Shown: positions 1,723-23,387 of the stretch, piece by piece
Numbering within the stretch: the first letter of the stretch is position 1
Layout of the letters: every line of letters begins with the position of its first letter
From: Candidatus Omnitrophota bacterium
GTDB lineage: Bacteria; Omnitrophota; Gorgyraeia; Zapsychrales; Zapsychraceae
Reading direction: 5' to 3'
DNA: 41,798 bases
Assembly (NCBI GenBank): GCA_029568545.1
Contig: JAKQAH010000035.1
Location: 1 to 41,798, forward strand
The notes under the pieces: model-generated
What the model saw: only the letters and a program-made list of their open reading frames with translations
Told to the model about the DNA's origin: nothing
The model's database searches: none
Program-made: the position numbers and the translations under genes

Positions 1723-3444
1723 ATGACCGGCATGACAAAAATAATTAGATCAAAAGAAAAGAAACGATTCGTGATCTACACCCGGTGCTCGACCGACGAT
1801 CAGGCGCAGGGCGATTTCACGACACTGGACGCGCAAGCGCATCACTGCAAAAACATGCTCGATGCGTTCGGCTATGAACTTGGAGAAATAGGAAAGAACG
1901 GAATAGTCAACGATGACGGCTATTCCGGAAAAGATTTGAACCGGCCGGGAATACAGCTGATCCTTGAGAACGTAAGGCAAAAGAAGAAAATTGACGGCAT
2001 AATTTTCTTCCGGCTCGACCGGCTCACGCGCAATACGCGCGACCTCTATGCCCTCATCGATTTATTCCGCGAAAAAGAAGTAGATTTTATTTCGGTAAGA
2101 GAAAACCTCGACAGCTCCACCGCGATCGGCCGCGTGGTTATAGGAATACTCGGCATCCTCTCCGCGTTCGAACGCGAGCTGACCGGCGAACGCGTGAAAG
2201 CCTCCGCGATCGCCCGCGTACGCCAAGGCAAATGGGTCGGCGGTTTCTTGGCGCACGGTTATAAACTGGAAAAAGACGGCGAACGCCTGCCAAACGGCAG
2301 ACAACCTCACAAAGTTGTTCTGGATCCGGAACTCGCGCCCAAACTCAGGATTATCTGGGAAATGGCGGCCAACAACAAATCGCTCATGGAGATCGGCCAA
2401 GAGCTGGAGCGGCAAGGCGTAAAAACCTGCCGCGGCAAAGTCTGGCGCAAACAGACATTGTCATCCGTCATCAAAAACCCTTTTTATAAAGGGTACATCC
2501 TCTACGCCAATGAACTTCACAAAGGAAATCACGAAGCGATGATCGAACCCGCGATCTGGGAGAAGGCCAATAGAATCGTCAAAGCCAAACTACCCGGCCA
2601 TGGATTCAGCAGAAGACCAAAAACATATAATTATTTATTGAGCGGACTGCTCAAGTGCGGGAAATGCGGAAGCCACCTGATATCGGCCTCCAACAAGGGG
2701 CGGGATGGAAAGAAGTTTCATTACTATATCTGCGGCAGGTCGAAACAAAAACTCGGATGCAATGAACTGGGCATCCCGGCCCCGGTCTTTGACCGGGCCC
2801 TGATCGGATACTTCCGGAAAGCCTCCCAGAACCGGGATATCATCATCAAAGGCATCGGCGATGCCATGCGCGAAGCCCAGCTCATGGCCGGGCGCATCGA
2901 CACCATGATCGCAGAAACCGAAGCCAAACTCAACGATTGCCAGCACGAAGCCAAGACCCTGCTGGATCTGGCCATGACCGGCACCGTAACGCAAGGCCCA
3001 GCTTATAAAAACAAGATGTCGGAAATAGATAACCAAATAATAATGCTCGAGGACAAGCTGACCAAACTTCGGTCACAAAAGTCGGCCAACGACATGACGG
3101 CCAACTCGGCCAATTACCTCCACGAAACCCTGCAGTTCGCCTTGGAATACCTCGACAAAGCCCCTGCGGATGCCCAGAAAAGCCTCATATTCGCCCTTAT
3201 AAAAGAGATTACGATCCATAGCGACGTAATTGACCTGCGGATGTACTTGGGCGATCCTGAACAAACCCTGCAGGCCGATATCCACGACTGCGAACACAGC
3301 CAAACCGCCGTAAAAAACAAAAACCCCGTTCCGGAATTACTCCGAAACGGGGCTGATGTTAACGATCAAGCGCTTGTTGCGCATGGTCGTCCAAAATGGC
3401 TCCCCCGCGAGGACTCGAACCTCGGACCCAGTGGTTACACTTGA
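1723..3444 (+). CDS. Large serine recombinase (integrase)
   Basis: Catalytic YTRCST, DDGYSG, RLDRLTR, SAFERELTGER; recombinase domain; Zn ribbon CGKCG..YYIC; coiled coil. Confidence 0.95.
   Translation: MTGMTKIIRSKEKKRFVIYTRCSTDDQAQGDFTTLDAQAHHCKNMLDAFGYELGEIGKNGIVNDDGYSGKDLNRPGIQLILENVRQKKKIDGIIFFRLDRLTRNTRDLYALIDLFREKEVDFISVRENLDSSTAIGRVVIGILGILSAFERELTGERVKASAIARVRQGKWVGGFLAHGYKLEKDGERLPNGRQPHKVVLDPELAPKLRIIWEMAANNKSLMEIGQELERQGVKTCRGKVWRKQTLSSVIKNPFYKGYILYANELHKGNHEAMIEPAIWEKANRIVKAKLPGHGFSRRPKTYNYLLSGLLKCGKCGSHLISASNKGRDGKKFHYYICGRSKQKLGCNELGIPAPVFDRALIGYFRKASQNRDIIIKGIGDAMREAQLMAGRIDTMIAETEAKLNDCQHEAKTLLDLAMTGTVTQGPAYKNKMSEIDNQIIMLEDKLTKLRSQKSANDMTANSANYLHETLQFALEYLDKAPADAQKSLIFALIKEITIHSDVIDLRMYLGDPEQTLQADIHDCEHSQTAVKNKNPVPELLRNGADVNDQALVAHGRPKWLPREDSNLGPSGYT
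3312..3352 (-). terminator. Intrinsic terminator for the tRNA-Asn transcript, inside the integrase ORF
   Basis: Minus strand CCCCGTTTCGGA-GTAAT-TCCGGAACGGGG followed by TTTTTGTTTTTT, about 45 nt past the tRNA CCA. Confidence 0.75.
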
Positions 3445-3972
3445 CCCGCTATTCCTAACGGAAGTGGACTTTCTCTTCACCGTCGGCTTAACGTTACGGT
3501 GGCAGGTGTAAAGTCTCTGCACGTTCCCTGAACACTTAGGATCAGGGCTTCGCTCAGGATTACCCGCCGGTTTCCCGGTTTGGGCTTCCCTGAATTAGCC
3601 TGCTGTTTCAACCGGCGTTTCCGCCGGAAGCTGCGTCTGAGCATGAATTTCACGATGACAATTGGCACAAACAAGAAGACATTTATCGATCTCTTCTCGT
3701 ACCTTAGTCCAACTTCGAGTATAACCTTTACTCGAAACACTGAAATCCTTTTGATCAGGATCTCGGTGATGGAACTCTAAGGCTTCGATACAGCGGTCAT
3801 AACCACAAATCTGGCATCGACCACCCTTATATTCAACTGCTTTCTGTCTCATTTTCTTACGTCTTTTATGGACAGCAGCAATTAAATATTGCCGGCGATC
3901 TTTGTATGTCCGCGTATCTTTTCTTGCCATTGCCCTCATCCATTTGCTCGTTCCGCCTTCGGCGGAACTCTC
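3438..3972 (-). ncRNA. Group I intron (IC3-like), 535 nt, between tRNA positions 35 and 36
   Basis: 5' exon ends in U and intron ends in G. P AATTCAGGGAA (3596-3586), Q AATCCTGAGC (3561-3552), R GCAGAGACT (3520-3512), S AAGAGAAAGTCC (3477-3466). IGS GCAGCT (3634-3629) pairs with exon GGCTGT including a U.G pair. P2 CCGGCG-GAAA-CGCCGG; P9 CCGTTA-GGAA-TAGCGG. Confidence 0.93.
3595..3939 (-). CDS. Intron-encoded HNH endonuclease (putative homing endonuclease)
   Basis: CQICG..LEFHH..CANCHREIH (two CxxC plus HNH), basic N-terminus; wholly inside the intron. Start at 3939 or 3930. Confidence 0.88.
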   Translation of the reverse strand: MRAMARKDTRTYKDRRQYLIAAVHKRRKKMRQKAVEYKGGRCQICGYDRCIEALEFHHRDPDQKDFSVSSKGYTRSWTKVREEIDKCLLVCANCHREIHAQTQLPAETPVETAG

Positions 3973-4030
3973 ACAGCCACTTGCTCTACCAGCTGAGCTA
4001 CAGGGGATTAAAATTTCGGAGAAATTTTAA

Positions 4031-4070
4031 TCCCCAGCACCCCTTCAAATAACTTGCTGGGTGCAGGGGA
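4031..4070 (-). repeat. tRNA-leader hairpin element (copy at tRNA-Asn)
   Basis: TCCCCTGCACCC-N15-GGGGTGCTGGGGA; same core as the units upstream of tRNA-Arg. Confidence 0.75.
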
Positions 4071-4135
4071 ATATTCTTTTAAAATTCTCTCCAAAACAAG
4101 GGACACTATAAAGAACAGGGGAAAACGTTATATGG

Positions 4136-4163
4136 ATTATAATTAAAAATCTTCAAAAGTCAA
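4136..4163 (-). promoter_or_regulatory. Putative sigma-70 promoter of tRNA-Asn
   Basis: TTGACT-N16-TATAAT. Confidence 0.6.
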
Positions 4164-4184
4164 TGAATCAAATCGCCTAAATTC

Positions 4185-4787
4185 CTACTCCTTCACTTCC
4201 CTCCTCGTCATCATCGACATCCCCAGCGTCGACATGTCAGCGTACTCCAAGGACCCTCCCATCGGGATCCCCACGCTGATGCGGCTGATCTTCACCCCCA
4301 AGGGTTTTAATTCCTTGATCAGGTAAAGAGCCGTCATTTCGCCTTCATTGTCAGGATCGGTCGCGATCACGACTTCCTGGACATCCTGCTCGCGCACGCG
4401 GCGGATAAGCTGCGGGATCTTAATGTCATCGGGGCCGCACCCATCGGCGGGAGAAATGACCCCCAGCAAAACATGATAATGCCCCTTGAACGCTCCGGAG
4501 CGCTCGATGGCCAGAACATCCTTTGGATTTTCAACCACACAAACCGTCTTTTCATCCCGGCCCGTGTCGCTGCAGATCATGCAGACTTCGGTATCGCTCA
4601 AATTATTGCATATGCGGCAGAACATCAGGCCGTCCTTAAGCTCAACGATGCTTTTGGCGATCGCATTTGCCTCTTCTCTGGGATGATTGAGAAGCCAAAA
4701 GGCAATGCGTTCGGCGCTGCGCGGGCCGATGCCGGGAAGCTTGGTGAGCTTTTCGATCAAATTTTGGATTAATCTGGGATAAGCCAT
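4185..4787 (-). CDS. recR: Recombination mediator RecR
   Basis: LPGIGPRSAER HhH, C4 Zn finger, TOPRIM (VIATDPDNEGE), SLEYAD. Confidence 0.97.
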   Translation of the reverse strand: MAYPRLIQNLIEKLTKLPGIGPRSAERIAFWLLNHPREEANAIAKSIVELKDGLMFCRICNNLSDTEVCMICSDTGRDEKTVCVVENPKDVLAIERSGAFKGHYHVLLGVISPADGCGPDDIKIPQLIRRVREQDVQEVVIATDPDNEGEMTALYLIKELKPLGVKISRISVGIPMGGSLEYADMSTLGMSMMTRREVKE

Positions 4788-4910
4788 AACTCACTAGAGA
4801 ATCGGGGTGAGATTGAGTTGTGCGTTATGAGTCGGGAATGAGGCCGGATCCCAATCTCATCCTCACCCTCGCCCCATAACCCACAACACGCCCTCCCCCT
4901 AATGATTAAA

Positions 4911-17506: not shown

Positions 17507-17523
17507 TTTACCTTTTCACCACT

Positions 17524-17602
17524 GTCATTCTGAGCGAAGCGAAGAATCTAGACCGACAAGATTCTTCTACCCCATACTTAAACGATGGGGTATCAGAATG
17601 AC
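17524..17602. repeat. REP/MITE-like palindromic element between pgaA and pgaB
   Basis: Terminal IR GTCATTCTGA/TCAGAATGAC enclosing GCGAAGC and two inner stems (GAAGAATCT/AGATTCTTC, TACCCCAT/ATGGGGTA). Confidence 0.75.
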
Positions 17603-22978: not shown

Positions 22979-23047
22979 TTGTGCTCTTTTAGAATTTGGC
23001 GCGCCGGGACCCCTAGCTAAGAAAAGCGAGGTAAGCACCACGGCTTT

Positions 23048-23124
23048 TGGTGCGCCTGAGAGGATTCGAACCTCTAACCCTCTGCTCCGTAGGCAGATGC
23101 TCTATCCAATTGAGCTACAGGCGC
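23048..23124 (-). tRNA. tRNA-Arg(ACG)
   Basis: GCGCCTGTAGCTCAATTGGATAGAGCA-TCTGC-CTACGGA-GCAGA..GGTTCGAATCC..CAGGCGC-A-CCA, 77 nt. Confidence 0.97.
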
Positions 23125-23155: not shown

Positions 23156-23325
23156 GCGCCAGTACCCCTTCGTTCAAGTCCTGGGTGCAGGCGCAAACGA
23201 CAATAATATTTTATTTAGAGACATTTGCGCCAGTACCCCGTCTACCAACTCAGGGTGCAGGCGCATGCAAAACAAAAACAAATAATCCCCGCTAGTACCC
23301 CATCCAATAACTCCGGGTAAGGCGC
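23156..23325 (-). repeat. Tandem array of three tRNA-leader hairpin units (23156-23194, 23227-23264, degenerate about 23289-23325)
   Basis: GCGCCTGCACCC-N13/14-GGGGTACTGGCGC with similar AT-rich linkers, period about 70 nt. Confidence 0.85.
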
Positions 23326-23359
23326 GCATGAAAAATATTATCAGTAACTTTTGTGCAGT

Positions 23360-23387
23360 ATTATATCAGCGATTTTGATATTGGCAA
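23360..23387 (-). promoter_or_regulatory. Putative sigma-70 promoter of tRNA-Arg
   Basis: TTGCCA-N16-TATAAT upstream of the repeat array. Confidence 0.55.

Follow-up and report, generated by a model that had tools for sequence, protein, structure and literature searches.

The 5′ maturation of tRNAs by RNase P is usually treated as an unregulated process, and to our knowledge the leader switches acting on this step are all man-made. Attenuators of the trp type are built from mutually exclusive helices (1:2, 2:3 and 3:4), in a layout of three or four consecutive segments, the middle of which has a possible partner on each side. In designed riboswitches, a hidden tRNA leader blocks RNase P, as reported in PMC7897497; there, and in PMC8925977, a leader helix hides or exposes the cleavage region, which sets the processing of the tRNA precursor, and the switches described are synthetic and ligand-responsive. 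The t-elements, cutting signals for RNase P and RNase Z, resemble a tRNA in fold without being part of one and could recruit processing enzymes, and as reported in PMC1920247 they mimic whole tRNAs or large parts of them and flank mRNAs or rRNAs. Finally, REP, REPIN or MITE-like repeats and the tRNA copies of integrating elements are hairpin-forming, genome-specific and copy-variable sequences, which occur at the edges of tRNA genes with a duplicated gene end.

Here we describe a leader that resembles each of these systems in part: a stretch of about 120 nt on the minus strand, ahead of a tRNA-Asn(GUU) gene, in which the 5′ acceptor strand of the tRNA is found again as a copy and an anti-copy. 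Its layout is that of a trp-type attenuator; unlike in the latter, there is no terminator, leader peptide or coding gene, the fourth segment is the 3′ acceptor strand of the tRNA, and the output would be RNA processing instead of termination. As in the designed RNase P riboswitches, a leader helix would hide or expose the cleavage region, but the candidate device is natural, has no known ligand and, unlike those switches, builds on the tRNA's own strand, copied and anti-copied. Compared with t-elements, only the acceptor stem of the next tRNA is copied. REP/REPIN/MITE-like repeats differ in that the units of this genome stand only in tRNA leaders, with no fixed terminal sequence and no integrase inside, and the many dispersed intergenic copies of a REP/REPIN family are not seen in it. 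With regard to att-type integrase fragments, it is here the 5′ and not the 3′ end of the gene that is copied, in units of 63-70 nt and not in kb-sized elements, and the serine recombinase gene found near tRNA-Asn lies on its other side, not between the repeats. Full-text literature searches, judged from titles and abstracts, returned no description of such tRNA leaders. The acceptor-copying layout is real, tRNA-specific and apparently undescribed, and a leader found in nature with both a copy and an anti-copy of its own tRNA's acceptor strand would be new.

The sequence belongs to a draft assembly (G000; 1.4 Mb in 196 contigs, 78% complete) that encodes an RNase P RNA of type A. By the window we mean the whole stretch of DNA analysed, of 41,798 nt. 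Its tRNA-Asn transcription unit is composed of the following elements, given from upstream to downstream:

4136 to 4163, minus strand: putative sigma-70-like promoter before the whole leader (TTGACT, 16 nt, TATAAT; 11 of 12 consensus matches)
4106 to 4118, minus strand: boxA-like run CTGTTCTTTATAG, close to the predicted RNA start, from sequence reading
4064 to 4070, minus strand: decoy A, TCCCCTG, an exact copy of tRNA-Asn nucleotides 1-7 and the 5′ arm of helix S1
4038 to 4063, minus strand: core hairpin, CACCC, a 15-16-nt loop and GGGTG, of the type common to the Arg, Ala and C108 units
4031 to 4037, minus strand: anti-strand B, CTGGGGA, the 3′ arm of helix S1
4008 to 4030, minus strand: spacer TTAAAATTTC-TCC-GAAATTTTAA, whose halves pair with each other (inverted-repeat search)
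3973 to 4007, minus strand: 5′ exon of tRNA-Asn(GUU), 35 nt, last base U35
3438 to 3972, minus strand: group I intron, 535 nt (Rfam RF00028 at 3688-3445, 71.8 bits, E 1.9e-16)
3397 to 3437, minus strand: 3′ exon of tRNA-Asn, with the CCA encoded (ARAGORN on script-joined exons)
About 3312 to 3354, minus strand: terminator-like hairpin with a T run, 3′ of tRNA-Asn

ARAGORN makes no call of this gene in the window because the 535-nt intron splits it, and it returns a 76-nt tRNA-Asn(gtt) cloverleaf once the exons (4007-3973 and 3437-3397) are joined in a script. Promoters similar to that at 4136-4163 also precede the leaders of relatives, and given these promoter-like sites upstream of them, the modules are probably transcribed. 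A 1000-nt contig of DNA run X1, which may itself be the sample from which the window came, is identical to the window over 3900-4840. A search of sequencing runs for this bacterium gave three from DNA and none from RNA.

An initial annotation of this DNA had singled out a 40-nt hairpin at 4070-4031, minus strand, with arms TCCCCTG and CTGGGGA around a CACCC...GGGGTG core. Its coordinates are correct, and the arms pair at six of seven positions, with a T opposite a T at position 6 as claimed. The pattern CTGCACCC-N(8-25)-GGGGTGC matches the window once and none of 100 dinucleotide-preserving shuffles. An inverted-repeat search recovered the perfect 15-nt repeat that had also been reported (4003-4017/4021-4035, 100% complementary), as well as a second one of 15 nt and 87% complementarity (4028-4042/4059-4073). 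Strand B can pair either with decoy A, forming the helix that we call S1, or with nucleotides 1-7 of the tRNA, forming a second helix, S2, with a U opposite a U at position 6 both times; the two helices have B in common and are mutually exclusive, as in an attenuator. The pairing halves of the spacer lengthen the S2 of tRNA-Asn to the perfect 15-bp inverted repeat at 4035-4003.

The extra TCCCCTG that the same annotation placed at 4122-4116 is there on reading the sequence, mostly inside the boxA-like run (4118-4106), which has an apparent resemblance to the rrn and lambda boxA. Such a run could belong to a nut-like antitermination site, where it would load Nus factors together with the hairpins for read-through of a structured, intron-bearing tRNA unit. 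The conservation of the run in tRNA-Asn leaders across the order would fit this role, and so would the A/U-rich motif of the spacer, which resembles a diverged copy of the run. However, (C)TGTTCTTTAAA-like runs occur in the tRNA-Asn leaders of most inspected relatives whether the hairpin is present or absent, and an antitermination site explains neither the tRNA-copying arms nor S2. We regard it as very improbable.

The build of the Asn leader is repeated in the window ahead of a tRNA-Arg(ACG), with two good units and a degenerate one:

23360 to 23387, minus strand: sigma-70-like promoter upstream of the Arg array (TTGCCA, 16 nt, TATAAT; 11 of 12 matches)
23287 to 23328, minus strand: Arg unit A, degenerate (16.8 bits)
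23227 to 23264, minus strand: Arg unit B, built as Arg unit C (53.1 bits)
23156 to 23194, minus strand: Arg unit C, GCGCCTG, a CACCC core and CTGGCGC (60.6 bits)
23048 to 23124, minus strand: tRNA-Arg(ACG)

The spacer that follows Arg unit C has AAATT and AATTT as its end pieces, which extend the pairing to the tRNA 5′ strand. The heptamer AATAACT occurs both in the loop of the Asn hairpin and in the third, degenerate Arg unit, as had been pointed out. In one contig of run X1, 64 nt are skipped between 23255 and 23320, with three other letters in between, which amounts to one Arg unit fewer.

The idea that arms follow the adjacent tRNA held up when all tRNA loci of the assembly were considered, and the further tRNA-linked copies it called for were found. 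The set comprises 34 loci (32 ARAGORN calls, the intron-split tRNA-Asn, plus one tRNA truncated at the end of contig C108), and the 260 nt upstream of each were read for the hairpin build. Two units precede tRNA-Ala(GGC) (GGGGCTA...TGGCCCC), one precedes tRNA-Arg(UCG) (GCGCCCG...CAGGGCGC) and one the C108 tRNA (GTCCCTG...CTAGGAC), while tRNA-Gln(CUG) shows the same build with another core. A fixed rule required that the first 7 nt of the tRNA recur exactly, that the 3′ arm pair at no fewer than 5 of 7 positions and that an inner stem be present. By this rule, cognate arms occur at 5/34 loci and at 5/1054 non-cognate pairings (Fisher p=5e-6), at least two of these five non-cognate matches being neighbouring tRNA genes themselves; the Arg(UCG) unit escapes the rule because of a bulge. 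Genome G044 gives 4/33 cognate and 7/990 non-cognate matches, and G205, from another class, 1/36 and 5/1224 (p=0.16), a result that does not support a cognate excess in that genome. A covariance model, R1, built from seven G000 hairpins finds seven full copies in G000, every one before a tRNA, and none away from tRNAs at E<=0.01; the remaining matches in this genome fall on reverse strands or score at most 20 bits, weak partial hits of which two precede tRNA-Val. Two cruder approaches were less informative. A duplex-energy test of each leader against tRNA nucleotides 1-9 was weak, with 6/33 tRNAs within the best 5% of non-cognate controls, since G/C-rich strands cross-react, and the pattern KCSCCTG..CTGGSGM, searched over 401 genomes of the phylum, is too degenerate and gave counts like those of reversed-pattern controls. 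The module is specific to its tRNA where it occurs and patchy in its occurrence: around 6 of the 34 tRNA loci of G000, 13 of 52 tRNA-Asn loci of the order, and R1 matches in 7/61 genomes.

Arm-less leaders of two hairpins were also seen in G000 before Val(UAC), Pro(UGG), Pro(CGG) and Lys(UUU) (C78:19521-19618, C115:1073-1166, C165 upstream of 733 and C132 upstream of 1669). In three of these leaders the first hairpin resembles GCACCC..GGGTGC, and before Lys it has a different sequence; the second is long (..CACTTATG, a TTCGCT-rich loop, CATAAGTG..) and ends exactly at tRNA position -1. The same two-hairpin build is found in G002 and G004.

Seen on its own, S1 has the appearance of a tRNA minihelix, and it could be a product cut by RNase P, acting as a processing signal in the manner of t-elements or as a decoy for some acceptor-stem-specific factor. 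Its stem in G000, of 7+5=12 bp, has the length of an acceptor and T-stem stack, a T mostly stands ahead of the 5′ arm, just as it does ahead of the tRNAs, and RNase P cuts in tandem units would free pieces of about 70 nt. The Ala decoy carries G3:C70 and not G3:U70, and by textbook identity rules it should for this reason escape charging. However, the S1 stems of relatives reach 14-16 bp with unrelated loops, and there is neither a T-loop nor a 3′ RCCA, the loops spanning 4-26 nt and the 3′ flanks reading AAAT, ACAT, TTAA and similar. Neither Rfam (RF00005) nor ARAGORN calls a tRNA at 4070-4031 or 23328-23156, where the fold is one stem and one loop. A released minihelix also leaves the extension of S2 unexplained, and we consider it unlikely.

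This extension sets S2 apart from S1. B and the bases following it (ext) pair with those preceding the tRNA (ext′) and with tRNA nucleotides 1-7, usually also with 8-9, and examples of ext/ext′ are AAATT/AATTT (Arg), ACAT/ATGT (Ala), ACAAT/ATTGT (C108) and, at Asn, the two spacer halves of 10 nt. For a wider comparison we used 22 curated loci, chosen by eye in place of an automatic relaxed caller with many false picks. S2 is extended by at least four consecutive pairs in 17/22 of them (extensions of 4-10 bases), and when the ext and ext′ of different loci are set against each other, four pairs are reached in 8.1% of 456 (binomial p=5e-15, with relatedness ignored and thus overstated, because the loci are interrelated and hand-picked). 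An extension of S1 reaches four pairs in only 1/22, so that plain duplication does not account for S2. In the tRNA-Asn leaders of four congeners, RNAalifold predicts S2 with four pairs changed on both sides, and the pairing of the Asn spacer is kept with compensatory changes in G002, G004 and G011. The predicted helix measures 13-19 bp and has the RNase P cleavage site in its middle.

The loop of S2 is an A/U-rich motif, TCTAAATAAAA..., which occurs 15 times in G000. Six of these occurrences continue in an ATTATTG/ATTATGG-like manner; all six stand before tRNAs, and five lie within an inverted repeat of 12-15 nt. A role of the motif as a promoter was considered and rejected: sigma-70-like sites are found upstream of the modules, and transcription initiated from the motif would begin within the tRNA. 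An RNase III processing stem was also discarded, as a cut in S2 would harm the 5′ strand of the tRNA, and a terminator scan gave only a partial match, with no U-run after S2. Minimum free energy folds of whole precursors are more stable than those of shuffles (z -3.6 and -3.75); since they do not return the cloverleaf, they were set aside for the choice between S1 and S2.

A second trait common to the curated loci is a flaw in pairing at or next to position 6:67, present by our reading in 20/22 of them (U.U in 16, U.G or U.C in two, a one-base bulge in two). Owing to this flaw, B pairs less firmly with A and with the tRNA strand alike, and the native acceptor stem is spared. The U.U could be thought of as a 3-bp target duplication (CTG..CTG) around an inserted core, a possibility that suits the xxxxCTG tRNAs and suits neither the bulged forms (CAGGGCGC, CTAGGGGA) nor Ala (TGGCCCC), in which the flaw takes another form at the same place. 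With the pieces folded separately, the predicted stability of S2 exceeds the arms' contribution to S1 in 16/20 loci, with means of -17.6 and -11.7 kcal/mol. From these energies, S2 should win as long as the 3′ strand of the tRNA does not exist; thereafter the advantage should pass to S1 together with a perfect acceptor stem of 7 bp. Such an order of stabilities fits a parking of the 5′ strand, followed by its release after some 7 perfect acceptor pairs are added.

We favour the view, with a probability of about 0.45, that the leader is a cis-acting RNA device that would park and then release the 5′ strand of the tRNA, gating RNase P, and that it probably began as a duplication. Its parts would act in the order of their synthesis: decoy A, core hairpin, flawed anti-strand B, ext, the A/U-rich loop motif, ext′ and the tRNA. 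S1 (A:B), a tRNA-like minihelix, would be the first to form. The newly made ext′ would then pair with the free ext as a toehold, from which the tRNA 5′ strand, identical to A, would capture B and stay parked in S2 during the synthesis of the tRNA body (and of the 535-nt intron in tRNA-Asn). Once the true 3′ acceptor strand is made, its flawless pairing would win the 5′ strand, B would return to decoy A, paying for the release, and RNase P would be free to cut. The unit itself would probably derive from a duplication of the leader motif together with the tRNA 5′ strand, and concerted evolution could hold the 5′ arm identical to the tRNA. A weak point of this scheme is that S1 forms first co-transcriptionally, so S2 may never form.

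What lasts and what changes in the module can be gauged from relatives. R1 matches 7/61 genomes counting G000, that is 6/60 relatives: three of four congeners and one genome in each of three other families. Among the 14 R1 loci of relatives that were inspected, seven are armed hairpins that precede tRNA-Arg(CCU, ACG, UCG) or tRNA-Asn and match it in their arms, four are arm-less cores before tRNA-Pro or tRNA-Lys, and three lie away from tRNAs. For tRNA-Asn, the survey took in each 5′ end detected among the 61 genomes (52 loci from 51 of them). A hairpin whose arms are of the Asn type stands at 13/52 of these loci, three of them (G034, G037, G008) recognised by eye. B reads exactly CTGGGGA in seven genomes of three families, with cores and the remaining leader varying around it, and this sequence has a T where pairing wants A or G, the tRNA's own strand being CGGGGGA. 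At the Asn locus of the four congeners, the arms and the U.U are constant and the cores are of three different kinds. The initial annotation had spoken of a constant core, a description that is right within G000 and does not extend to the congeners. As far as these sequences tell, the lasting part of the module is the arms with their U.U flaw, and the core is exchangeable yet common to the loci of one genome. Sharing within a genome together with divergence between close relatives is the behaviour of a repeat family.

The most substantial alternative starts from this behaviour. The insertion of small palindromic elements at the 5′ edges of tRNA genes, or partial tandem duplication there accompanied by template switching, could have left functionless by-products; only those events that leave an intact tRNA would survive, and the gene end would remain behind in two copies, one direct and one inverted. 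The genome-specific cores shared by unrelated tRNA loci, with three cores at the Asn locus of four congeners, would be expected, and so would the patchy distribution of the module and the varying number of Arg units, one of which is missing from one X1 contig. In sister genomes, tRNA genes are also flanked by longer fragments of tRNAs, 5′ ones on the upstream side and 3′ ones on the downstream side. In G044, G064 and G012, 5′ fragments of 12-33 nt, followed by hairpin elements that are genome-specific and shared, precede an intact tRNA, and across four genomes the copies are polar: an exact 5′-strand copy is found upstream of 22/120 tRNAs and downstream of 2/120, and a 3′-strand copy downstream of 17/120 and upstream of 1/120, the 3′ ones being repeats of 7-38 nt around inserts of some 30-260 nt. 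The patchy occurrence, the turnover of cores and the polarity of the gene fragments speak for insertion or duplication. Moreover, template-switch mutation can keep inverted repeats perfect without selection, and Y1 transposase-like genes (PF01797) occur in 51/61 genomes, with a single weak match in G000 (37.7 bits).

Against functionless scars, there is no mobile element of constant sequence, each of A, B, ext and ext′ differing from locus to locus, and G000 has no R1 copy away from tRNAs at E<=0.01 and all six full spacer motifs before tRNAs. Fresh inverted copying would yield a perfect complement instead of the same T67 in three families, nor would it yield a flaw at the same place in 20/22 loci, and the presence of Y1 transposases fails to separate the genomes with and without the module. 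A scar does not predict the T67 shared by three families, the flaw confined to one place or the extension of S2, and it is on account of these three facts that we give the strand-parking device the weight stated above; an origin as scars without function seems to us somewhat less probable.

The initial annotation had argued for a selected system rather than independent duplications, a choice that proves to be a false one. The sequence before the decoy often resembles that before the tRNA (G040, G008 and the Arg array), so the unit seems to be a duplicate of the leader motif plus the tRNA 5′ strand. Selection on the module is nevertheless suggested by the comparison of relatives, where B is kept with its odd T in three families and S2 covaries. 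In the scar case, an undescribed mode of remodelling of tRNA gene edges in reduced genomes would be at hand, which would account for the odd hairpins and gene fragments met by tRNA finders and annotators. In the case of the device, cells could time or gate the maturation of a tRNA in cis, with a simple programmable design of decoy, anti-strand and toehold. A still wider view, in which ultra-small bacteria possess a natural strand-exchange relay, driven by toehold branch migration, as a general, sequence-programmed gate on the folding and 5′ maturation of tRNAs, appears rather doubtful to us.

Fragments of tRNA genes were noted at other loci of these genomes. Downstream of tRNA genes in G000 (C25:20666-21000) and G064 (L197, L202, L209, L212), inserts of 150-270 nt are bordered by direct repeats of the tRNA 3′ end, 16-38 nt long. 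In G044, 5′ fragments lie upstream of Arg(UCG), Thr(CGU), Pro(UGG) and Gly(UCC) (L046, L048, L050 and L043), with the D-loop or the anticodon loop broken by one or two hairpins of the TCCGAC..GTCGGA type.

The module is not tied to the intron of tRNA-Asn, since it is also carried by intron-less tRNAs (Arg, Ala, Gln, and the tRNA-Asn of G039 and G042). For Asn genes, the module is more frequent where an intron is present (9/20, and 4/31 without; p=0.013, for classes assigned by eye and with relatedness ignored), and the longest S2 helices, with 8-10 extra pairs, are those of intron-bearing Asn genes (G000, G002, G003, G004, G011). Both observations fit, as weak evidence, a 5′ strand that has to wait longer for its partner.

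The group I intron of the window is inserted between U35 and U36 of tRNA-Asn(GUU), and some 20 of the 52 tRNA-Asn loci of the order look intron-bearing, at several different junctions. A frame inside the intron (3939-3595, 114 aa) has an HNH-like Cys/His pattern by eye and matches no Pfam family at E<=0.001. In DNA runs X1 and X2, a contig diverges from the window at 3973 and continues with 12 letters that read as the beginning of the 3′ exon, an intron-less junction that may come from a strain without the intron or from another organism sharing the tRNA. A large serine recombinase of 573 aa (Resolvase, Recombinase and Zn_ribbon_recom domains; 1723-3444, plus strand) runs towards tRNA-Asn, with the last ~120 nt of its gene overlapping the terminator and the 3′ exon on the opposite strand, and its presence may mark the edge of an integrated element.

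Other hairpins of the window deserve a mention. At 17518-17600, minus strand, downstream of a 1005-aa frame, a TACCCC..GGGGTA hairpin with a TTCGCTTCGCTC loop is nested in two inverted repeats (TCATTCTGA/TCAGAATGA and GAAGAATCT/AGATTCTTC), and both DNA runs contain a rearranged joint from 17549 to 17518. At 23040-23060, minus strand, the encoded GCACCA end of tRNA-Arg pairs with a TGGTGC located 7 nt downstream, forming a trailer hairpin that includes the CCA, and a longer trailer hairpin of this CCA-including kind follows tRNA-Leu(GAG) on contig C178.
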